Source: a virus (lineage: Duplodnaviria; Caudoviricetes). Taken from it: a DNA stretch of 44,291 nt. The position numbers and the translations under genes were made by a program. The stretch is taken from IMG/VR virus record IMGVR_UViG_3300006639_000010, positions 1-44,291 of that record; one strand, given 5' to 3'. The notes beneath the pieces are model-generated. The model was not told the origin of the DNA. It saw only the letters and a program-made list of their open reading frames with translations, and searched no databases. Below, in pieces: positions 197 through 44,291 of this stretch (positions are counted from its first letter, which is position 1; each line of letters opens with the position of its first letter).

Positions 197-3100
197 TAGA
201 ACTTAGTCTCCAAATACATAACAGAAAGTTGCATGTTAACAGAACCTGTTGTAGCTCCGTTTGATCTCCAAGCGTGTCCCGTTAGTGTTTGTGTGTTTGT
301 TGGTATGTTTGAAGAGGTTGAGTAGTTGAAGGCTGTTCCAGTTTCTAGATCTTCAAATCTAAAATGAATAGTACTACCATTAGGTGGCGTGTACACAACT
401 AGATCATACATAGTTGTACTAGAAATAGCTATGCCAGTATCTGTAAAAGTAGATGCCGCTGTTCCAGCTCTGTGTTGAATAAACCAGTTGGTGTCTCCGT
501 TTCGCTTACAAACACCGATAGCATCAGGTAAGGAGCTATGGTCTGGACTGGCATCCGCAATGTTTGTAACAGCATTCTGTGAGTTTAAACCAGCAAATTG
601 GGTTGTGGTTGCACCAACAGAATCATTAAACCCAAATCTACAGTTAAAGAAGAAACCACCTCTATTGTTGTTTGTGCCATCTCCTCTAAAACACTGTAGA
701 CCGTTTATTCTAAGGTCTACTTCTGTTTGGGCTGTTGTTGCGGTTGCTACTAAAGCCACTCGACCACAACTTGCTTGAAAGTTTGCTGAGCTAATTGTTG
801 CGGCGGTCATTGTACCCGTTGTGACAAAGTCAGCTCCGACATCAGCGGAAGCCTGTGCGGAAGCCGTACATGCTTTCCACCATCTAATGTTATTTCTTGA
901 CAAACAATGCTGTAAGTTTGTTGCATAACCCGATGAATCTGTATAAGCAAGTAAATCTTTTCCACCCAGATCTAGGGGATAAACCACCAAACTGTCGGCA
1001 GCTGGAGCAGAAGGAGCAGAGCTTGGCTTAATCAGTTTAAGATTACCACCAGCTTCTATCTCTACCTGTGATGCACCAGCAATAACCAAGTTACTGTCAT
1101 TGAACTGTACTTGTCTATCTGATCCACCAGGAGATGCTGAGCCGCCTGTGTTATCTGTTCCTGGTTCCCACACAGCAGATATGTTATTCCACTTGAGAAC
1201 CTGACCAGCTGTTGCTCCACCCTGTGCTATTCTAGCAAGAGCAAGAGAACCAGTTGTTATATCTGCAGCTGAGTGGGTGTGTGACGTACTTGCTTTTCCA
1301 GCGAGATCTGTAACAAGGTTGGTGATATCGCTTTGTGCGTGAGTGTGTGAGGCAGGAACATCAACTGTAATGGTATTTGCTGTGTTATCGTGACTAATTG
1401 AAGCAAGACCAGTACCACCTAGTGTTACTGTTCGTGTTTGCAACGAATCGTTATTCCACCAAATTAATTTTCCAGATGCTTGTAGTGGAACTGGAACGGT
1501 AATCGTAGATAGTGGTTGGGTGTGTCCATTAAGCCAACTATCTCTAGTTGAATTTATCCAAATATTACCAGCACCTAATATAAGAAGATCGTTTACAATA
1601 GGAGAGGTTAGAGTTACATCCGTTAAGTCGTTTAAGGCAACACTTCCAGCACCGCCAGTTGCATCATCAGCAGCTGCCCATGCAGAGCCGTTCCACTTGA
1701 TGACTTGACCTGAGGTTGCGCCTCCTTGTTCAAGATCGGCAAGGGCGTGGGTATGATCAAGAGGAGCTAGATCCTTATATTCGTTGCCGATATGTAAGAA
1801 CATTTCCTTTACAGTCAGCGTTTGAGCTGGACTAGATGTACCTCTAGAGCGGATTTCGCATCCACCATAAGTACCAACATCCGCTTCTAAACCTGTTCTT
1901 ACATAGTCAAGTTTAACAGTAGCTACTTCGTCTCCAAAGCTATCTAGTGTTATCTGAGATAATATAAAACCAGTTGGTGTGACTTCAACTCGTAAGGTTG
2001 CTTCTGATGCTACTGGTATTCCAGAATCAACAGAAACATCTACAACTTCAGTTCCAATAAAGTCATCTCTTACTTTACAAAACCAATTAGTTGTTCCATT
2101 ACAAACAAAGGCTACATATACTTGATCTTGTAGGTTGTGCGTAGCCGTAAAACCAACAAATGCAAATGTACCAGAATCCGAAGACCCTGTGTAGGATACC
2201 TTGGCTTGTAACATAGCCCTTGTATTACTAAAGGGTCTAAATGTTCCTGCTGCAACGCCCTTTCCACGATCCATATGTCTAAATCTAGCTACAGATGCGT
2301 TTAAATTTGCGTTGGTTATAAGCTGTATCGAATTACCTGTAAGCACAACATTACCGTTTGTTGGGTTTGGTTCTGTACCTACAGATGTTACAAACGAACC
2401 CGTAGTAGTTCCATCAGTAAAATAGTACTGATGTCCCCACATAATATCGAGAGGTTGCGTCATAAAGCTGTTATTAAATGCAAGATTCTGCATGGTAACA
2501 ACACCAGGATCAATAGTCCAAGTGTTGTCTCCGTTTACTGTAATGTCTCCCTTATCACCTTGTGTGAGATTAAAGGAGAACAATTCGGTTCCGTTATTGT
2601 AAGACGCAGAAATACTGTTACCATCCGTAAACTCAGCTGGTACCCAGTTGGTTCCATTCCATGCAGCCACACTGCCAGTGGATGCTCCGCTGACTGTTAG
2701 ATCAGACAAAGCATGTGGGTGTGAAGAGGGAACATCAACGTTTATTTCGTTAGTTGTGTTGTCGTGAGTAACAGTTGCAAGACCAGAGTCTGTAAGTGTT
2801 ACTGTTCTTAGTTGCAAGCTATCATTATTCCACCAAAGCAATCTACCACTTACTTGCTGTGGAGCGGGAATTGTAATTGTGGTTAGTCCCTGGGTGTGTC
2901 CTGATAGATACGAATCTCTATTAACAGGAACAAAAGCACCGCCACCACCACTACTCCATTGTAGGATATCACCGCCAATTGGAGTTCCCAAAGTAACGTC
3001 AGTCATGGCATCAATAGACAAAGTTGCCCATGTGCCATCACCCTTGAGATACTTGGTAGCGTCTGCGGTACCAGTTGCCAAGCGTTCCTTAGCAACAACC

Positions 3101-5265: not shown

Positions 5266-6711
5266 TCAGGTACTCGCTAGAGACAAGGTCATAACGATTG
5301 GAGAATCTGTTACTCCTGCTAAAGCCATAGCGGTGGGTCTACCACCAACCATTACATTAGTAGCACTACCAGATGTAATTGTAAATGTACCAGCATTTAC
5401 TCCAAGTGAGCAACTAGAGTTACCTTGTATCGTAACCTTTCTAACAACAAAGGCATAAGCATTACCGCTTGTCCATTGTTCACGTCTCCAATAAAACGCA
5501 ACTGCCACACTTCCATTGTTTACTACGTTTACGGTAGAACCTGTAAAGGTAGTAACATCTTCTGAAATAGTAAAAGTAAGTGTAGATAAAGGACTTGGTG
5601 TTGTTGTTACGTTCTGTTCTGCTGTTCCGTTTTGAGACTTAAAGCTACCTATAGCTACGGAAGCAGCAGCTAGCGAACCAGCTGTTTGAATAGCACCCGT
5701 AACAATAAGATCGCCGCTGACTCTTGCGGTACCATCTACAACGAGTTCACCTACGTTGTTTCCGTTCTTAGGTCTGATGGTAATACCAGTGCTTGGTAGG
5801 TTACTGCTGTTTGAGAACAGGCGAATAGATCTACCAGCAGATGATAGGTTTGGTTGTACAAACAGATCATTTGAAAGACCAACGGAATCTGTTAGCGATG
5901 ATGCAAAGATTCTACCACCACCAGAAACATCTAGTTTTAGGTTGCTCGTTAGGGTCTTTGCGCCTGAGATCGTCTGATCGTCAGCTAGGGTTACTACGGC
6001 TGTCTTGGCATTGGTGCCAACAGCTGAGAACTCTAGGGTATTGTTGACGGTTGTTGTTGCAGAGGTTGCCGTAATGGCATCGACCGCAACACCAGAACCG
6101 TTGGTTGGTGCGATTACAACAGACTTGCTTACACCGCTGCCAGATAGCTTGGCGGTGCTGCTAAGGGAGATGTTGTTGCTGAAGGTCTTGGCTCCAGAGA
6201 TAACTTGGTTGGATGTAAGATCTACACCACCACCAGAGCTAACCCATGCGGAACCATTCCATACCTTTAGCGAGGTTGCGCCTACCGTGGTATCGAACCA
6301 CAGCTGTCCAGTGTCTGCCGCGTTTACGGTTGGCGTGGTATCCGTGAAGAATACACGACCAGCATTCTGTAGAACACCTCTTTGATTAAAGGCATTCAAT
6401 AGAGCATCTGCACTGGTTCTGATTTCAAGGAGATTGTTTAATTGTGATGCGTTTGCGTTTACCTTGAGAAGACGCAAAGCAGGATCGAATGTAAGACCTG
6501 TGGCTGGAACCTGTACGTTGAAACTGTCAGGTCCAACGGTAATTCTATTCAAGCCAACAAGTACATTGTCATTGTTTGTGGCATTGTCGATGCCAGGATC
6601 GCCAGTGGTAATCATTGTCCAGCTCTTGTTAGATGAGCTGAACTGCCACTGAACTGTTCCTTCTGTGTGGATTGCTCCATCGGCTGGAGCGTTTGGGAAG
6701 TTAATAGCCAT
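5266..6711 (-). CDS. Tail fibre / virion structural protein
   Basis: MAINFP N-terminus, GQLWFDT..LKVWNGSAW motif, two QxISGAKT repeats typical of phage fibres. Confidence 0.75.
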   Translation of the reverse strand: MAINFPNAPADGAIHTEGTVQWQFSSSNKSWTMITTGDPGIDNATNNDNVLVGLNRITVGPDSFNVQVPATGLTFDPALRLLKVNANASQLNNLLEIRTSADALLNAFNQRGVLQNAGRVFFTDTTPTVNAADTGQLWFDTTVGATSLKVWNGSAWVSSGGGVDLTSNQVISGAKTFSNNISLSSTAKLSGSGVSKSVVIAPTNGSGVAVDAITATSATTTVNNTLEFSAVGTNAKTAVVTLADDQTISGAKTLTSNLKLDVSGGGRIFASSLTDSVGLSNDLFVQPNLSSAGRSIRLFSNSSNLPSTGITIRPKNGNNVGELVVDGTARVSGDLIVTGAIQTAGSLAAASVAIGSFKSQNGTAEQNVTTTPSPLSTLTFTISEDVTTFTGSTVNVVNNGSVAVAFYWRREQWTSGNAYAFVVRKVTIQGNSSCSLGVNAGTFTITSGSATNVMVGGRPTAMALAGVTDSPIVMTLSLAST

Positions 6712-6719
6712 GAGTTACC

Positions 6720-7643
6720 TTATTGTGCAGGAGCAGAGACATCGACCCAATAGCCGATCTCAGCATCCGTTGCTTCTGTTGCTGCTCCAAACTTATCGTC
6801 TGGAATGTAGACATATAACCTACCATTAGTTAGGTTAAACCAAAGGGATCCCCAGCCAAACAACCCATCACCCACAGTACCTCTTGTTGGAGAGGCTGCT
6901 TGTGCAAAGAAGGAGCTTGGTAATAGACCTAGAGGACCAGGTGCCTGTGATGCTGGTAGTTTGCCAGATGAATCCAAAGTTGCAATACCGTTAGCTGCTC
7001 CTAGTTGAGAGGTAACGGTATCGTCTACTAGATCATCTACATATACCTTGGTCGCTGCGTCTTCGTCGTTTGTTGGTTCAGCTAGGTTTGTGATGACAAA
7101 CCCACCTGCACTTAGGTCTTCGACCAATGGGTTTACAACCGCATCAAAGTCAGTACGAAGAATGGCATTGTCTGCCGTGTTCTTTACCTCTTGGATAAGA
7201 CCCAGTAGGTGTGATGTCTGTAGATTGAGTTGGTCTGCAGTGATGCGCGAACCAGTAGTCCACGTTACATATGGTTCAGCGACGATGTTTACGCGCTTGA
7301 CCGTAATGGCTTCTCCAGCCAGTAATGCTGGTAGAGAGATAACGCTTCCGTCATCTCTTGTGAAGGTGGTACCTGGGGGAATTGTGATTGCTGTGATTGT
7401 TCTGTTGATTTCATCCAGTGTTAGCCAATCGCTAGCCAGTTGACCCATGTCGCGGTACTCTCGGGGTGACAGATCTAAACCTGATACCGTATCGATTTCG
7501 CTGCGGAACAGAAGCAACTGCTCCTGCTGATCAACACCACCCACCATTGTGAGTGGAGCATAGGAGATTGGAACTAAATCAGGACCACTAAAGGCGATGG
7601 TAGCCTCAGTTGATAGTGTAACTGTCGTTTGATTTGTTGCCAT
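6720..7643 (-). CDS. Tail fibre adaptor, T7 gp17 N-terminal-like
   Basis: VTWTTGSRITADQLN..Q..LL..IQE resembles the gp17 anchor; DAATKVYVD and GIATLDSSGK motifs; start MATNQ just after the gp12 stop. Confidence 0.8.
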   Translation of the reverse strand: MATNQTTVTLSTEATIAFSGPDLVPISYAPLTMVGGVDQQEQLLLFRSEIDTVSGLDLSPREYRDMGQLASDWLTLDEINRTITAITIPPGTTFTRDDGSVISLPALLAGEAITVKRVNIVAEPYVTWTTGSRITADQLNLQTSHLLGLIQEVKNTADNAILRTDFDAVVNPLVEDLSAGGFVITNLAEPTNDEDAATKVYVDDLVDDTVTSQLGAANGIATLDSSGKLPASQAPGPLGLLPSSFFAQAASPTRGTVGDGLFGWGSLWFNLTNGRLYVYIPDDKFGAATEATDAEIGYWVDVSAPAQ

Positions 7644-30027: not shown

Positions 30028-30100
30028 CATTCCTGGGTGGATTCGAACCACCAACCACCAGCTTAGAAGGCTGATGCTCTATCCGTTGAGCTACAGGAAT
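30028..30100 (-). tRNA. trnR: tRNA-Arg(UCU), CCA not encoded
   Basis: ATTCCTG/CAGGAAT acceptor, GCTC/GAGC D stem, loop CT-TCT-AA, GGTGG-TTCGAAT-CCACC T arm. Confidence 0.93.
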
Positions 30101-30101
30101 A

Positions 30102-30177
30102 TGGTGGTTTCGGTGGGACTTGAACCCACGACTTATGGATTAAAAGTCCACTACTCTACCAACTGAGTTACGAAACC
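30102..30177 (-). tRNA. trnK: tRNA-Lys(UUU), CCA encoded
   Basis: GGTTTCG/CGAAACC acceptor + ACCA, loop CT-TTT-AA, GTGGG-TTCAAGT-CCCAC. Confidence 0.95.
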
Positions 30178-30181
30178 TTAA

Positions 30182-30254
30182 TACCAAGGATGGGATTCGA
30201 ACCCACACTACTCGCATTTTGAGTGCAATGACTCTGCCGTTGGTCTACCTTGGC
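30182..30254 (-). tRNA. trnL: tRNA-Leu(CAA) with a short (5 nt) variable region
   Basis: GCCAAGG/CCTTGGT acceptor, A73, loop CT-CAA-AA, variable GTAGT, TTCGAAT T loop. Confidence 0.88.
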
Positions 30255-31289: not shown

Positions 31290-31837
31290 TAGAACGGGAT
31301 GTCCGAATCAGTGATTGCAGGGGAAGACTGGGCAGCAGTAGCCGCAGACTTTGCAGGTCGGTCAACATGAGTGCCGACATACCCTCCCTCAATTGCATCG
31401 AAGCCATTCACCTTGGCGGCAGGATCAGCAGAGTTCTTCTGCACGATCTGAACACCATTGAGGTAGAACGACATCGACTTGCTGGCACCCTTGGCAACAA
31501 CCACAGGGGCAAGCTTGATTCGCACAGTGTCACCACCAAACGGAACCACATCGGTATAGTTACCAGTGCTGTCCTGACAGGGGAATGCACCCTTGTCAAC
31601 ATGAGACTTGGACTTGAACTTGACAGTCTTGAGTCCATCCTTCTCATAGGTTCCGTTGATCTTCTTGCAACCATTCTCCTTGGCTACCGCCATAAGCGTA
31701 GCCTCAAGCTCCTCGGTCAACACAACAGTGATGTTGTGATTGGCAGAACCCTCACCGAACATAGTGTCGGGCTTGATCAGGTTGCTCCACTTGACCTCAA
31801 GAACCTTGGTGATGATGTTCTTAATACGCTCAGCCAT
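31289..31837 (-). CDS. ssb: Single-stranded DNA-binding protein (gp2.5-like)
   Basis: W..L.KPD, YLNGVQI, acidic C-terminal tip SDIPF; T7-type position. Confidence 0.8.
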   Translation of the reverse strand: MAERIKNIITKVLEVKWSNLIKPDTMFGEGSANHNITVVLTEELEATLMAVAKENGCKKINGTYEKDGLKTVKFKSKSHVDKGAFPCQDSTGNYTDVVPFGGDTVRIKLAPVVVAKGASKSMSFYLNGVQIVQKNSADPAAKVNGFDAIEGGYVGTHVDRPAKSAATAAQSSPAITDSDIPF

Positions 31838-33213: not shown

Positions 33214-33409
33214 GCTCAACCTTCTTCGCCTTCTTCTTGGCGAGGTAATCAACCATATATGTGAGGAACTGGACATGCATCCAGTCCGTTGTACAGAGAA
33301 AGACCAATGTAACAGGTGTCTTGGTCTTGTCCTTCATTGCCTTGTGGATTATCCTGACACCTGATTCAATGGCTCCCTCGCTGTCTATGATAATAGGAGG
33401 GGAGTTCAA
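33170..33409 (-). CDS. Hypothetical protein
   Basis: TTGA overlap with the RNAP stop. Confidence 0.55.
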   Translation of the reverse strand: MNSPPIIIDSEGAIESGVRIIHKAMKDKTKTPVTLVFLCTTDWMHVQFLTYMVDYLAKKKAKKVEHVKVDIYIEQKEEG

Positions 33410-35880
33410 TGAAAGAAGTACTCACTCTCTAGCACCTTGGTGATATCCAGAGTACCAGTGCTAGGTACATCTGGCAGATCCTCACCAAGTTGCAGACATA
33501 GTTGCTCACGCAACACCTGTAGTTGGTTGACCTGATGAATCTTTACGAACTCTTGCCTTGTTACTTGTCGGAGATTGTCCACCTCTGGTGCATGCACACC
33601 ATACGAATCGTGGATAAACGAATACGAATCACATGTCAGCTCGTTGATTACTGCGAACATGTGACTGGCATCCAACGAGTGAATATAGTTGGGAGAGATG
33701 CCGTTCTGTGCTTCTCTACCGTTCACCTCGTCTCTGACAAACTCATTAAACTCTATTCGCAGTGCGGTTGTTGCCGACTGCAAGTTAACAATACCGTTTG
33801 TCTTACCGTAGTATTGGTGGCACACCTTGAAACCAATCGGTGTAGTCCACTCAAGATGAATCTTCTTATCGGCTGCAATCTTAGCGATTGCCTTGAGCCA
33901 AGTCTTACCTTGGTTTGGGATAGTAAGCAGCGAGTTCATCGCAGCCTGTACATACTTGGTAAGTTCCTTGGCACCGTTGATCCTGAGTGTCTTATCTAAC
34001 CAGTCAAGATGCCCGTCATTGAGAAGACCGTCTGCGATACCTCTGGTTGTGACACCATAGGGATCAGTCATAACAGCCCGCTTGACAACAGAACGACTGA
34101 CCTTACCTTCCCATTCCTCAAGGAACAGGGTAACCCAGGGATCCTTGTGGTTCAACGGAAGCATAGCCGTAGTTACCTCAGCGGCAACCACACCATATGC
34201 GTCGTTAGGCTTGGGGTCAGGCAGCAGATTGACCATACGACCAATCACAGGATCCTTTGCAATGGCAGCCCAGTGTTGGATACCATTGCAGGAACCATCC
34301 ATACCGATAGGTAGCTGAGTCATACCATCCTCACGGAACAGTTCGAACACAGCAGCCAATCGTTGGAATGATTGATTCTTCTTCTTCTTGTCATCAGCCC
34401 AGAGATTCAGAGTCTCAAAGGGATCGTCGTTGATTGACCGCAACATCTTCATGTTGTCATCAACCCACTTGACACGATCAGCGAATGACTTCTTGTCCTG
34501 ATCAAACAGGTTGGCAACCTGTACCTTGAGCCAGTACCTACCTCGTTCTGTCTGAGGTACGGCATTGGCAAAGAGAATCAAGGCTCTGTCTTGATCACCT
34601 GACTGTGGCGACAGCAAGTCAGTAGCCGTATAGGCACGACCCCTGAAGTCACAGGTATACACATGATAGAAGAAGCCATACGAAACCAAGTCCTTTGCCA
34701 ACGATAACCGTAGGCACATCCTGATTCGTTCGTTCTCCTTGCGATACCACTCCGACCACAACTCAGACTTCTCTAACTTAGTTCTCTCAAGTTCTTCTGG
34801 ATCCGTTATGTCTGATCTATCCTGCGTAAGCACAGGATCCATTTCATATGGAGGCAGGTTGGCAATCCTGTTATTGGACTTGAACAACTTCTCCATTACA
34901 TCCAGTACCTTGGTGTTGACACACCATTCGGTGGACATCAGCTTGTTTAGACCGTCGATTACTTTCTGTGATGGCTCGCTACCCTTGAACTCGGTAACGA
35001 AATCCTCACCATGAAAGTAAATGTAACCACGATCTACCATACCCTTACGAAGATACTCGGAATGCACACCACCAGATAGACCGATGGCATGAGACATTGG
35101 AGGTACAATCATCGGACGATACCTGATCTTAGCACGAAGCATGAAGTCAGAGTGTGCTTCAGTAAGACCCGCAGTTACCTCAGGTGTAAAGCTAACAGCA
35201 ATAGGACTTGAGGTACTACCTTCCCAGAACTTAGTGCGTTCAATGATGCCAGCTCTCTCAAGGATAACCATAAGGTTAAGACCAAGATAGTACCGTTCCT
35301 TATTACTAAGGCGGATGTGTGCATCAGACTTGTGATTCTTAATGAAGTCTCTGATCTGTCTGTTTGTCCATCTATTCTTAAGAATCTTACTAGCAAGAAC
35401 CCAAGCACCAGCATTCTCATTACGAGACTGTTGGTAGTTGACAGCAGTCTGTATTGTATTAGCGATAGACCTAGCAAGATCTTGCTGAAGTACGGGAGTA
35501 AACTTTCTCCCGTTATCGTCGTTGTCTGTTCCTTCAATTCCCTTACGCTGTGTAGTAAGAATTGTCTCAGTACAAACCGTGATCAACAGACCAGCAATAC
35601 GCCTAGGTCCAAGCCTATAGATTGGATTGACCCAGGGTATGTTTCGTTTCTGAAGATCACAGAGGTATTCTTCAATAGCATTGGAGATGTGATCAACAAC
35701 ACTAAAGATTAATGCTTGTTCAGGTGCATAAGAACTGGGATCTCTCTCATAGTTATCCCAGTATTTCTGTAACGATTCGTTGAAGATGTCTTCTTCAAAG
35801 ATAGAGTTAAGTGTTAATCTAGTTTGTCTATCTTCAAAGGTTAAGCCAAGCCATTGCTTTCCAACGCAATACTTTGTCAT
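33406..35880 (-). CDS. Single-subunit DNA-dependent RNA polymerase (T7 gp1-like)
   Basis: PMIVPP, DFRGRAY, DGSCNGIQH, R..VKR.VMT..YG, PNYIHSLDASH, IHDSYG, SEYFF; AAGGAG SD before ATG 35880. Confidence 0.97.
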   Translation of the reverse strand: MTKYCVGKQWLGLTFEDRQTRLTLNSIFEEDIFNESLQKYWDNYERDPSSYAPEQALIFSVVDHISNAIEEYLCDLQKRNIPWVNPIYRLGPRRIAGLLITVCTETILTTQRKGIEGTDNDDNGRKFTPVLQQDLARSIANTIQTAVNYQQSRNENAGAWVLASKILKNRWTNRQIRDFIKNHKSDAHIRLSNKERYYLGLNLMVILERAGIIERTKFWEGSTSSPIAVSFTPEVTAGLTEAHSDFMLRAKIRYRPMIVPPMSHAIGLSGGVHSEYLRKGMVDRGYIYFHGEDFVTEFKGSEPSQKVIDGLNKLMSTEWCVNTKVLDVMEKLFKSNNRIANLPPYEMDPVLTQDRSDITDPEELERTKLEKSELWSEWYRKENERIRMCLRLSLAKDLVSYGFFYHVYTCDFRGRAYTATDLLSPQSGDQDRALILFANAVPQTERGRYWLKVQVANLFDQDKKSFADRVKWVDDNMKMLRSINDDPFETLNLWADDKKKKNQSFQRLAAVFELFREDGMTQLPIGMDGSCNGIQHWAAIAKDPVIGRMVNLLPDPKPNDAYGVVAAEVTTAMLPLNHKDPWVTLFLEEWEGKVSRSVVKRAVMTDPYGVTTRGIADGLLNDGHLDWLDKTLRINGAKELTKYVQAAMNSLLTIPNQGKTWLKAIAKIAADKKIHLEWTTPIGFKVCHQYYGKTNGIVNLQSATTALRIEFNEFVRDEVNGREAQNGISPNYIHSLDASHMFAVINELTCDSYSFIHDSYGVHAPEVDNLRQVTRQEFVKIHQVNQLQVLREQLCLQLGEDLPDVPSTGTLDITKVLESEYFFH

Positions 35881-35919
35881 GTTTATTCTCCTTGGCAAGC
35901 CAACGAGGCTTGGTGTGTC

Positions 35920-35939
35920 CTTCAATACGTCTCCTGCTC
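35920..35939 (-). promoter_or_regulatory. Candidate phage RNAP promoter, copy 1 (GAGCAGGAGACGTATTGAAG)
   Basis: 19/20 identical to 21117-21136; intergenic, upstream of the RNAP gene. Confidence 0.55.
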
Positions 35940-40997: not shown

Positions 40998-41143
40998 GTC
41001 ACGCCTCCTCAATAGGGCAACCAAAGACGAACCAGATATCCATGCACTTGTGGCACAGATTCCACGACTCACAGTCAGGCGTATTGTAATACACCTTGTT
41101 GCAGTGCATACAGGTGCACTCTTCCATGTCACACCTCCTCAAT
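40995..41143 (-). repeat. Direct repeat ATTGAGGAGGYGTGACATG at consecutive gene junctions
   Basis: 18/19 identical copies at 40995-41013 and 41125-41143; degenerate copies at 41348, 41619, 41932. Confidence 0.75.
40999..41127 (-). CDS. 42-aa Cys-rich (CxxC...CxxC) early protein
   Basis: MEECTCMHC...LCHKC; GAGGAGGTG SD. Confidence 0.6.
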   Translation of the reverse strand: MEECTCMHCNKVYYNTPDCESWNLCHKCMDIWFVFGCPIEEA

Positions 41144-41350
41144 GGTATACCACTCGGTGGTATCCAGTTTGTCGTTGACATACACACGGTACACATTACC
41201 ATCGGGACGCAGTTCCACGGATGCACCATGAAAGGCATAGGCATTCTGCCACATTTGAATGACAGCCCCTGCCTTATACAGTGCGGAACCAACCTTCTCC
41301 GACACCACATCACCAGACGGAACTTCGAAGTGCACAGTCACATTGAACAT
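41129..41350 (-). CDS. Early hypothetical protein
   Basis: GGAGGTG SD. Confidence 0.6.
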   Translation of the reverse strand: MFNVTVHFEVPSGDVVSEKVGSALYKAGAVIQMWQNAYAFHGASVELRPDGNVYRVYVNDKLDTTEWYTIEEV

Positions 41351-41351
41351 A

Positions 41352-41621
41352 TCACACCTCCCATTCGGCACAGATCAACAGTTCATCATCACGGTCACGC
41401 ACCGTGACAACCTCGGGACTGACAGTGAACGCGATATACCGTCCATTGATTTGCCAGTTGATGTTTCCTGCAAAGGACACGGTGCGGATATAGGTGCGAT
41501 CCAGATAATCCAGCACCCATTCCGCATCACATGACACCACATCGGACGGAATCATTCGGGATTCCAACATCACCATCTCACCTTCCACCTCTCGGTACAC
41601 AGTCAGGTACATACGATCCAT
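41352..41621 (-). CDS. Early hypothetical protein
   Basis: GGAGGTG SD, MDRMYLTVY. Confidence 0.6.
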   Translation of the reverse strand: MDRMYLTVYREVEGEMVMLESRMIPSDVVSCDAEWVLDYLDRTYIRTVSFAGNINWQINGRYIAFTVSPEVVTVRDRDDELLICAEWEV

Positions 41622-41622
41622 G

Positions 41623-41934
41623 TCAGCACCTCCGCCCATAGGGCATTGTGTTGTCGTTGTTAATCGTCCACGACATCGGAACGATGTCAATGTTGCGGAC
41701 ACCCACCGCGTCGATAGCGCGGATGGTAGAGAACGGGATACCACATCCCGCAAGGTCACACATCTCCGCACAGGTCACCGCGGTGACATCGGCGCGGACA
41801 ATCCGCACCACATACTGGGTCATATCCCAGTCCCCACACGTCTCGCAGGTATTCTGCGAGATAACAGCGGGAGTATCCTGCACAGACAGAACACCACCGC
41901 AGCAGTCACGAACCACATAGTAGGTCTCAATCAT
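41623..41934 (-). CDS. Early hypothetical protein with CETCGD zinc-ribbon motif
   Basis: GGAGGTG SD; CC...CxxC. Confidence 0.6.
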   Translation of the reverse strand: MIETYYVVRDCCGGVLSVQDTPAVISQNTCETCGDWDMTQYVVRIVRADVTAVTCAEMCDLAGCGIPFSTIRAIDAVGVRNIDIVPMSWTINNDNTMPYGRRC

Positions 41935-41949
41935 TGTGCACACCTCCGT

Positions 41950-42615
41950 AAAGGCACACCGTCTACACAACGGTGCATCTTATAGGGTTCCGTATTGCCG
42001 CTACGGAACAAGAGCGGAGACATTTACATAGCATAGATTGTCTCGCAGTCTATGCCACTCCTCTGCACTAGGAGATATACTAATACCACTAGGTGCAGAA
42101 CCTAGTTACACCGTGTACTTCGGCGTATCCATATTCTATACGAATAGGGAGTCCATTACAGCCCTAACTTACCTGTTGCCACAGGCTGGCTGCGCTAAAG
42201 TTTGTGAGCAGTTTAAGGACATACTCAGGTCTATATCGCTCCCTATAACATCAAAGGTTAGGTGCGTGGTGACTTCTGTAGTTAACTCCCCGCATACGGC
42301 GGTTACTTCCCTACATAGTTTCCTTTGTTCGGACTTTCAACCGACACTATCCGTTATACATAACGGAGGGCACACCTTTGCCCAAGTTTCTTTATTGCCC
42401 ACAGTTTCTTCTCTGCTTGCCATACGGCGGGGCGGAAAGATACCCGTGGGATATTTCACCCACGGATACCGTGACTTTAATCAGTTGCGGTGCGTCAATA
42501 CCGCATACCTAGTCCGTTTCTTTATCTGTCTCAACTAACCACGGACAGTTAGTTGCGTACACACCCCTACCAATAGGCTGGGACAATCAGGTACGATTGT
42601 CGTGTGTACTTTGGT
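41950..42615 (-). ncRNA. Candidate large structured non-coding RNA (about 660 nt)
   Basis: No minus-strand ORF of 60 aa or more; about 14 hairpins and several loop-to-distal complementarities; most wobble pairs are G-U on the minus strand. Confidence 0.65.
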
Positions 42616-42618
42616 TTG

Positions 42619-42918
42619 TTAGATGTCCGACACATCGCGGTCGGCAAGATACTTGCCGATACGCTTGGGAACCACCTTCATCACGGACACAAAGCGTCCG
42701 CGCTTGTTGGCATCATAGCCAACACCGTCCGTGCCCCAACTGTGCCCGTTGCACAGTTCGCATGCCAGCATTTGCACGCGAAACAACACATCGTCAAACT
42801 TGTCGGGGGACACAGCCCCGACATACAGTTCGACGACATTATCGCGGACATCGTACACGCCACCGATACCCGCAAGTTTCGTCACCCACGCCTCACAGTG
42901 TGCAGCAGTCTTGGACAT
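42619..42918 (-). CDS. Early hypothetical protein
   Basis: GGAGG SD, MSKTAAHCEAW; WGTDGVGY motif. Confidence 0.65.
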   Translation of the reverse strand: MSKTAAHCEAWVTKLAGIGGVYDVRDNVVELYVGAVSPDKFDDVLFRVQMLACELCNGHSWGTDGVGYDANKRGRFVSVMKVVPKRIGKYLADRDVSDI

Positions 42919-42976
42919 ACTACCTCCGATTGTTTGCCTCGTCAGTGTGCGGGTAACAATCCCGCACAGACTTCCC

Positions 42977-43102
42977 TTAGCGGGAAGTTTCGGCATTGAA
43001 GATGCGCTTAATTTCGCGCTTCTCTTCTTCGATTTGCTTATCCACTAGGACAAGCGTTTCCGCAATTGCCTCTAGGACAATCTTGTGGAAATGTTCCCTC
43101 AC
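42977..43102 (-). CDS. 41-aa early protein
   Basis: GTGA coupling with GGAGGTG SD; read manually. Confidence 0.5.
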   Translation of the reverse strand: MREHFHKIVLEAIAETLVLVDKQIEEEKREIKRIFNAETSR

Positions 43103-43278
43103 TTGACACCTCCCGTGAACATCTTGCCATACTTCTTAGCCAACTTCTCCTCCGCAACCTTGCGGGAAGACTTGGTGGCAAATGCCACCGCCTTCACCAT
43201 AGCCTCCCAGTTGCGAAAGCACTTGACCGCTTCGAAGTTGAGCATTGCAGACTTAGCGCAATCAACTTTCAGGGACAT
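43099..43278 (-). CDS. 59-aa basic early protein (MSLKVDCAK...)
   Basis: AAGGAGG SD; read manually. Confidence 0.6.
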   Translation of the reverse strand: MSLKVDCAKSAMLNFEAVKCFRNWEAMVKAVAFATKSSRKVAEEKLAKKYGKMFTGGVK

Positions 43279-43315
43279 ATCGTCCTCCTTTGTTTGGGTT
43301 AGTCGGGCACAGACA

Positions 43316-43351
43316 GTAGGGGAGTGTACCCAAACGGATACACTCCCCTAC
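43316..43351. promoter_or_regulatory. Long intergenic hairpin (RNase III-type processing site candidate)
   Basis: Perfect 13-bp stem gtaggggagtgta/tacactcccctac between the first two early genes; no U-tract. Confidence 0.55.
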
Positions 43352-43364
43352 AGTGCGAGTCCGA

Positions 43365-43751
43365 TCAGAGACCGAGATCGGCATACTTGGCACGATCTGT
43401 GCCGCCGCGCATCTTCGGAGCCGACGACTTCGGCTCACTTGCGGCGAACCAGTTGGAGTGACCATTCTCCTCCAACCGACGTTGCATCCAATCAACGATA
43501 CCGTTGACGAAATCACCGCCGCGACCGTCGACCTTCATCCGCTCACCGAAAGTGAGCGTAACCACCATGTCGAGGATGGTATCACCACCGAGCACCTGCA
43601 ACTTCTCATTCTGGATCAGAGACTTGAGGGTAGCACGATGCAGGATGATCCGCCCGTCATCCGTTACCTTGCGACAATCCCTCGCAACCTTGACGAAGTC
43701 AGGCAGAACCGCAGCATCGAAACGAATCACATTCGGGAAACGAATCTCCAT
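43365..43751 (-). CDS. First early protein, hypothetical
   Basis: AAAGGT SD, MEIRFPNV, 128 aa. Confidence 0.7.
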   Translation of the reverse strand: MEIRFPNVIRFDAAVLPDFVKVARDCRKVTDDGRIILHRATLKSLIQNEKLQVLGGDTILDMVVTLTFGERMKVDGRGGDFVNGIVDWMQRRLEENGHSNWFAASEPKSSAPKMRGGTDRAKYADLGL

Positions 43752-43769
43752 GAGACACTTACCTTTCGT

Positions 43770-44215
43770 TAGAGTAAAGAAACCACACACGATGAAACCC
43801 CACGCTTCCCGTTAGGGAAGCGCAGGGGAGAAACAAGGTAGGGGAGTCGCTTCCCCGTACCTTGTGGGTGAGTGTTATAGAATCCACAGTGTGCTTTCCA
43901 CAACTCACTAGGCACACACCGTATCGGACATCCCCCGCTCAACCCAGTACGGGATAAGACTGCGGGGGACTTCCCTCCCGTGCGGACGGTCTGCGTTAGT
44001 GTCCTCGCGGGACACTCCGTTGCGCCTAACTTACGGTGCCCAGTAGTCCGATCCACAACGCGGTGGATGCTATTCTAGAGACTGGGACTTCTACCTATTA
44101 GAACCGTAAGGGTTGCGAGGTCAGTTGCCGTCCCCTCGGGGAGGGGATTAGGTTGTAGAGCAAAAGGCTCCGAATCAGTGACATTGTTTACCATAGTCAC
44201 TTGAACACCACTCAC
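43770..44215 (-). ncRNA. Candidate structured leader / second non-coding RNA (about 450 nt)
   Basis: At least 10 hairpins, GCGA loops, kissing-loop complementarity gtgagt/actcac. Confidence 0.55.
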
Positions 44216-44291
44216 GAAACGAGGCGGGCAGACTTCGGAGTCTCCGCGCCATATAGCAGGTGGGGGGTGCCATCGCTAGGGGGCATAGGGG

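Follow-up and report, generated by a model that had tools for sequence, protein, structure and literature searches.

A pseudoknot-rich gap in the early region of a T7-like phage, probably a mosaic array of small RNA modules

Introduction

Several described RNAs invite comparison with the locus analyzed here. In the mycobacteriophages L5 and D29, an early non-coding region of about 500 nt yields four abundant RNA species of 100–500 nt and is itself toxic to the host, and the Pleft RNAs of the Cluster A phages L5, D29 and StarStuff are presumed in the same source to be processed into several stable RNAs (PMC5712189). GOLLD and ROOL are large, pseudoknotted, phage-borne RNAs that form conserved families with Rfam models and are described as cages (PMC12286853). 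At the smaller end of the scale, type III antitoxins are H-type knots of 36–45 nt (PMC5086642, PMC4627078), and STAXI (RF01728) consists of small pseudoknots in series on mobile DNA (PMC2864571). RNA-based counter-defense by phages so far rests on few cases, e.g., pseudo-ToxI.

We analyzed 44,291 nt of viral DNA (IMG/VR record IMGVR_UViG_3300006639_000010), hereafter the window, whose early region contains a gap (41950–42615) that an initial annotation had read as one large ornate RNA. Like the Pleft RNAs, the gap is a non-coding, fast-diverging stretch of the order of 500 nt in the first-transcribed operon; unlike them, it belongs to a T7-like phage, is a pseudoknot-rich mosaic and is accompanied by a hammerhead, the likeness being one of layout. 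With GOLLD and ROOL, as characterized in PMC12286853, it shares size, pseudoknots and carriage by a phage, but it matches no family, lacks enclosing helices and contains no part that every relative has; the gap shows neither a covariance-model match to GOLLD, ROOL or OLE nor conservation as a unit with long-range multi-stem junctions. Its knots resemble ToxI, CptI and the PhiTE pseudo-ToxI in being compact, H-type and 30–45 nt long with A-rich loops, but they are heterogeneous, are not tandemly repeated, and no cognate toxin is known for them. Whereas STAXI repeats one knot, the knots of the gap differ from each other and do not match RF01728. Finally, one 47-nt module, hairpin C, resembles the T7 hairpins R0.5 and R1.1 (AAG...GCCUUUA stem, internal loop, position ahead of an early gene); the likeness is confined to this module, the exact flanking pattern has no T7 match, and GCCUUUA by itself is no rare sequence (2 occurrences versus 0.9 expected). 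By analogy, we rate the gap as a probable variant of those early non-coding regions of phages that give rise to stable processed RNAs; its modules are absent from Rfam. The literature searched contains no description of the array and no mention of the sequence of its knot PK3; single modules may be among the 8,495 candidate DNA-virus RNAs that PMC10690425 reports from IMG/VR.

Results

Genome Context

The window covers about two thirds of the genome of an uncultured T7-like phage (66% complete). Its minus-strand genes include a single-subunit RNA polymerase (33406–35925), to which the best named polymerases are only 26–30% identical, a primase/helicase, a DNA polymerase and a capsid gene. The gap lies among small early ORFs near the genome start, from a stop codon at 42619–21 to an ATG at 41934, and is indeed the largest internal gap, as had been claimed: it measures 648 nt between ORFs of at least 50 aa, and the runner-up is a tRNA gap of 367 nt. 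The three tRNA genes of the window occupy its middle region (30028–30254, minus strand) and are present in relatives too. Besides three tRNAs, Rfam matches in the window comprise a type II hammerhead at 42928–42995; the gap itself matches no family, and no match of the ROOL or GOLLD kind emerges even at E 10. The initial annotation is supported in that the gap is non-coding, structured, on the minus strand and rich in pseudoknots, is assigned to no Rfam family and has a plus-strand ORF without coding conservation. Transcription in the first minutes of infection would be expected from the T7-like layout; the minus strand within 41000–44291 contains no sigma-70 consensus promoter.

The early ORF immediately upstream of the gap (42619–42918, minus strand, 99 aa) has 18 homologues and no Pfam or PADLOC match, and Atlas searches gave no usable match for it or for the ORF on the other side. 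An archaeal genome label on one homologue was not trusted as a host clue.

Modules of the Gap

Five of the minus-strand modules of the gap are H-type pseudoknots; the others include a three-way junction, a hairpin with a UGAAA loop and a hairpin like the T7 RNase III sites. Block A1 begins 10 nt past the stop codon with the three-way junction (42557–42609, local z −3.3), which is also found in the distant phage G001 and in the public runs X2, X3, X7 and X11, in copies too alike for covariation. It is followed by PK1 (42512–42555; stems of 8 and 6 bp, a 1-nt loop 1 and a 14-nt A-rich last loop), which is near-identical in G001 and offers no covariation, and by PK2 (42472–42505; 6 and 4 bp, A-rich last loop). 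Block A2 is a covarying 12-bp hairpin with a T-loop-like UGAAA loop (42439–42470), possibly a leaky terminator; it is the most widely shared block, occurring in G001, G002, G004, X2 and X7 and twice in X3. Block A3 (42253–42438) comprises a small junction and four hairpins; its copies in X2, X3 and X7 end at 42252–3, after which a different gene start follows, and the stem of its hairpin 42350–67 is kept through paired changes, as reconstructed from the indel table. A twister P1 candidate at 42322–42369 was rejected (18.6 versus 67.2 bits, E 1.7), both pseudoknot pairings being absent by eye when compared with the twister layout.

Beyond block A3 lies PK3 (42205–42231), a 27-nt H-type knot that belongs to a very widespread phage family, the CUGAG knot. 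The middle of block B (42061–42193), which is weakly supported, contains a hairpin (42193–42158), a two-hairpin module (42159–42107) that resembles one in G001 in a two-sequence alignment, and a further hairpin (42100–42061). PK4 (42017–42056; 8 and 6 bp), for which no homologue was found, abuts PK5 (41987–42017; 5 and 7 bp). In G001, G002 and X3 the slot of PK5 appears to hold a knot of different sequence but like topology, as judged by hand in an alignment of ambiguous register. Hairpin C (41942–41988), with an AAG/CUU base, an internal loop and a 9-bp upper stem, directly precedes the ribosome-binding site of the ATG at 41934. The pairing scan predicts for PK1, PK2 and PK4 the knot form of the type III antitoxins, H-type and 36–45 nt long with an A-rich loop.

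Folding Energy and Knot Density

The pairings originally listed for the gap are largely real: 14 of the 16 tested (14 stems and two loop pairings) are fully Watson–Crick and the other two contain one other pair each, the GAAA-capped stem and the third loop pairing were both found, and all three of the pseudoknots that had been noted are present. The statement that nearly all of the gap pairs was too strong, as 67% is paired in the minimum free energy fold and only 153 pairs (46% of bases) exceed p = 0.5. Wobble pairs in the listed stems, which had been described as mostly G-U on the minus strand, do not pick a strand, with one G-U on minus and one on plus. The gap does fold better than shuffled sequence (z = −6.2 on the minus and −7.0 on the plus strand, 20 shuffles each), but it is not exceptional within this genome, nearly all of which is more stably folded than its shuffles: the z values of 16 other 666-nt windows lie between +0.1 and −7.3, two of them below the −5.9 obtained for the gap with the same 10 shuffles each. 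Because two of the 16 windows of the same length score as low or lower, the folding energy of the gap is by itself unremarkable. Coding regions also fold far below their shuffles (666-nt windows ending at 31491 and 18491, minus strand; z −6.4 and −7.3).

No pair spanning at least 70 nt rises above p = 0.51, and distal complements of loops occur at chance level (4 of 18 loops versus a control mean of 5.1). Two long-range loop pairings (42593–89 with 42510–06, and 42378–74 with 42258–54) were rejected as being at chance level.

The gap stands out by how densely it is packed with compact H-type pseudoknots whose last loop is A-rich; five of them are real. A strict scan gives four matches, one of them a plain hairpin miscalled as a knot, versus a mean of 0.4 and a maximum of 2 in 40 shuffles. 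A relaxed scan, whose settings were tuned after seeing the data, gives seven (the five real knots and two miscalled hairpins), whereas none of 100 shuffles and none of 62 genome tiles exceeds 4. For the plus strand of the gap the number is 4. Two pairs of perfect 10-nt repeats (42293–42302/42421–42430 and 42386–42395/42516–42525) are spaced by 128 and 130 nt and perhaps reflect an old duplication within the gap; in X2 and X7 one of them is changed.

Covariation

The alignment of PK2 and the UGAAA hairpin (three sequences) is paired in 66 of 66 cells, with four two-sided and three one-sided changes. Stem 1 of PK2 accounts for two of the two-sided changes and stem 2 for a single U-A to U-G change; the UGAAA hairpin has two of each kind. 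For hairpin C, likewise in three sequences, 36 of 36 cells are paired, with three two-sided and two one-sided changes. These levels were reached by 7 of 500 and 17 of 500 shuffles, which do not control for relatedness. All five of the one-sided changes counted keep a G-U pair on the minus strand, which argues for a minus-strand RNA. With three related sequences per alignment, this supports, but does not prove, that the three modules covary as minus-strand RNA. For PK1, PK4 and most of block B, covariation evidence was not found.

Relatives and Mosaic Blocks

Three relatives whose polymerase is 76–77% identical to that of the window reach the gap region (G002, G003 and G004). Records that are not independent were not counted as further sequences: the window itself (L025), repeats of G001 (L026 and L030) and of G004 (L029), and the G001-like L027 and L028. 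None of the relatives holds the whole gap. Instead, sharp-bordered blocks (35, 50, 75, 177, about 220 and 355 nt) are found reordered and before other genes. Two of them recur in G002, the UGAAA hairpin (35 nt) and hairpin C (50 nt), and ORFs separate the two; G004 shares PK2 together with the UGAAA hairpin (75 nt, 81%); G003 has no blastn match in the gap and one weak model match (E 0.05). In other searches, model R1 found no match in five other records, mostly fragments, blastn against named phages returned matches of PK3 size only, a PK1 pattern gave one true match and three chance matches in coding DNA, and eight of the 11 matches to the UGAAA-hairpin pattern stood in unrelated contexts and were left out of the homologues.

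The distant phage G001 carries 42435–42611 at 97% identity over 177 nt and is divergent beyond. For its proteins of 604 and 936 aa, the complete G002 offers no match, and its only other DNA matches to the window are a short piece of an early gene (74–80%) and a 30-nt PK3 at 90%, with 29.8 of 33.8 kb compared. The missing match to the window polymerase was dropped as a sign of distance, as the record ends before the expected gene. Such identity in an otherwise distant genome favors a recent transfer of the 177-nt block as a cassette. The 604-aa ORF of G001 (L031 1771–3585) has no PHROG match and no BLAST match to the window polymerase; its motifs recall those of single-subunit RNA polymerases.

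The public run comparison covers four of the 22 listed runs and 40 of the 100 differences. X3 carries 42253–42607 (355 nt); the UGAAA hairpin is found a second time upstream of this block, and a gene begins immediately past 42253. In X2, A1 and A2+A3 are on separate contigs, and 779 other letters replace 41987–42251. In the RNA library X11 a deep contig of 337 nt spans A1 with an upstream flank of the G001 type; contigs of two RNA libraries cover modules, could derive from DNA and are uninformative on strand or level. In L028 a deletion has removed all sequence from the UGAAA hairpin to the leader of the next gene. Block borders recur at about 42611–15, 42470, 42435, 42252 and 41987, and a given module is found ahead of different genes depending on the phage, a pattern that agrees better with cargo than with control of a specific gene. 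As read from these alignments, blocks have been exchanged between phages and replaced by ORFs in the manner of accessory genes.

G001 has an early cluster of its own of about 2 kb (L031 4900–6920) with 13 knot matches versus 0.8 in shuffles, a few of which may be hairpins or the knot of its ribozyme. This cluster contains a pistol ribozyme (5454–5523), four copies of PK3, two look-alikes of tRNA arms and a knot (6850–6878) that by eye is similar to CptI. Another knot is common to G001, G002 and G004 and absent from the window. The early gaps of G003 (400 nt) and G010 (640 nt) show no excess of knots. The non-coding gap of G010 (L160, minus strand, last 2.3 kb) is unrelated in sequence, and in this phage a T-run/GCGATATCC-like motif occurs several times ahead of early transcription units and may mark promoters.

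The PK3 Family

The PK3 knot family occurs in at least 120 viral contigs, and 78 of the 80 copies examined are intergenic. Among the 78 scored, 20 lie 5–8 nt after a stop codon, several of them at related hsp20 loci, and 34 within 16 nt. Stem 1 is fully paired in 15 of 17 copies that were not chosen for stem 1, with nine different triplets. Rfam names nothing for PK3 in the 36 of 80 loci scanned, and 74 of the 150 ORFs listed as flanking it include no toxin family. One copy lies between the ribonucleotide reductase and glutaredoxin genes of the Lentibacter phage ICBM1 (L159 1501–1535), and SIO1 has similar matches; ICBM1 is cultured and would be a handy test system for PK3. Near another copy, a tRNA cluster of L095 contains a sub-threshold twister P1 match (544–602, minus strand; 40.2 bits, E 1e-5).

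Candidate Processing Sites

The type II hammerhead (42928–42995, minus strand; RF02276, 45.6 bits versus a cut-off of 37) lies 350 nt upstream of the gap. It has a CUGACGA core, scores above the Rfam cut-off with core and three stems, and lies in a region also covered in X3. Cleavage, as read from the alignment, is predicted on the 3' side of C42969, with the next ATG 50 nt further on, and the hammerhead is a candidate 5' end of the RNA. Rfam ribozymes were not found in the early regions of G002, G003 and G004, so the hammerhead would be an optional element. At the other end, hairpin C agrees in its fold and its GCCUUUA strand with two early hairpins of T7 (1425–80 and 5845–905), the RNase III sites R0.5 and R1.1. 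With about two helix turns, an internal loop, covariation and a position before an early gene, it has the structure of an R1.1-type site and is a candidate RNase III site and 3' end. A perfect 16-bp hairpin between the first two early ORFs (43287–43365, minus strand; z −5.7), 83% alike in L006 1022–1105, is another candidate RNase III site.

Discussion

The gap very probably consists of some ten small RNA modules, independent of one another and arranged as a mosaic, in the first-transcribed operon. The single ornate RNA of about 660 nt proposed initially does not agree with the folding, in which long-range helices of high confidence are lacking, or with the relatives, which hold separate, rearranged blocks.

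What such an array might do can be outlined from its candidate ends. The region would be transcribed within the early operon, and the hammerhead would cut after C42969 and leave a 5'-hydroxyl end. Such ends slow RNA decay. A single cut by host RNase III in hairpin C would leave a protective 3' hairpin, as single cuts at internal loops are described to do (PMC1540722), and would free an RNA of about 1 kb. Exonucleases may then stall at the knots and hairpins, in the way that a pseudoknotted viral xrRNA blocks the bacterial RNase J1 (PMC5760640), so that this RNA or nested smaller pieces would accumulate, comparable to the RNAs of the L5/D29 early region (PMC5712189). Hairpin C, the UGAAA hairpin and PK3 would act as end or processing signals, and the remaining modules would be cargo with an effect in trans, for which the most plausible route is the binding of host RNA-binding proteins or defense nucleases. 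We give this whole chain, from cuts at either end of the early transcript to modules that survive as stable RNA cargo and act on the host, a little less than even odds. Trans action is favored for part of the array because ten signals exceed what is needed in cis and because the blocks travel independently.

The cis-only reading, in which the modules are terminators, processing sites or exonuclease blocks that tune neighboring early mRNAs and pile up as remnants of the gain and loss of small early genes, seems doubtful to us but is the main rival; it stays close because PK3 and the UGAAA hairpin resemble gene-end signals elsewhere. In other phages PK3 lies just past stop codons, and hairpins with a UGAAA loop are found in unrelated phages between a stop codon and a U-run. 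In the window itself A1 starts right behind a stop codon and hairpin C looks like the early hairpins of T7, the place of block B is taken by ORFs in X2 and G002, and the xrRNA precedent would serve blocks in cis equally. However, one signal per junction would be enough, yet there are about ten in the gap and 13 knot matches in the cluster of G001; the 177-nt block was kept or moved at 97% identity independently of the flanking genes, and ORF remnants between the modules of the window are not evident.

If the array does carry cargo, it could be an anti-defense island, in which swappable small decoy RNAs are released by ribozyme and RNase III from the first injected DNA, antitoxin-like knots here and tRNA-arm look-alikes in relatives, and would fill the role that the protein Ocr has in T7. 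We regard this as a speculative and rather unlikely extension.

A large ornate RNA of the ROOL/GOLLD kind, whether the whole 660 nt or the 355-nt A1–A3, is improbable. Its size and pseudoknot content would fit, A1–A3 are contiguous in X3, the 5' domain of GOLLD is described as variable (PMC12286853), A1 or A3 could be tied together internally by loop complements of five bases, and two 10-mers recur 128–130 nt apart. However, no long-range pair rises above p = 0.51, distal complements are at chance, A1, A2 and A3 occur apart, and Rfam offers no match of this kind even at E 10.

More improbable still is that the modules as such mimic the type III antitoxin RNAs ToxI and CptI and neutralize host abortive-infection RNases. 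A precedent exists in phage PhiTE (PMC3475682), CptI is described with loops like those of PK1, the first of 1 nt and the last long and A-rich (PMC5086642, PMC4627078), and the G001 knot in the slot of PK5 shares, by eye, a 7-nt stretch and a UAUAA linker with a CptI primer (PMC4627078). Nevertheless, PhiTE reportedly needed 4.5–5.5 near-identical repeats, whereas the gap has no tandem repeats. No Rfam antitoxin matches it, 74 of the 150 listed PK3-flanking ORFs include no toxin family, the PK2 pattern is absent from bacterial genomes, and many small knots have such a shape.

A protein-coding or DNA-level feature, the latter including folds of single-stranded DNA, is largely refuted and very improbable: the plus ORF 42038–42538 is an open frame of 166 codons and folding is as good on plus as on minus, but the frame has no coding conservation, no PHROG, Pfam or PADLOC match, one-base frameshifts in G004 and X3 and blocks rearranged within it, and changes that preserve G-U pairs occur only on minus.

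The array of independent modules, our preferred reading, implies that a long, well-folded gap in a phage genome need not equal one giant RNA. Because the modules are 27–180 nt long and their borders are marked by natural exchange, they can be tested singly, for example for nuclease blocking and toxin rescue. If this reading is true, a mosaic of exchangeable early RNA modules would mean that small folded RNAs evolve like accessory genes.
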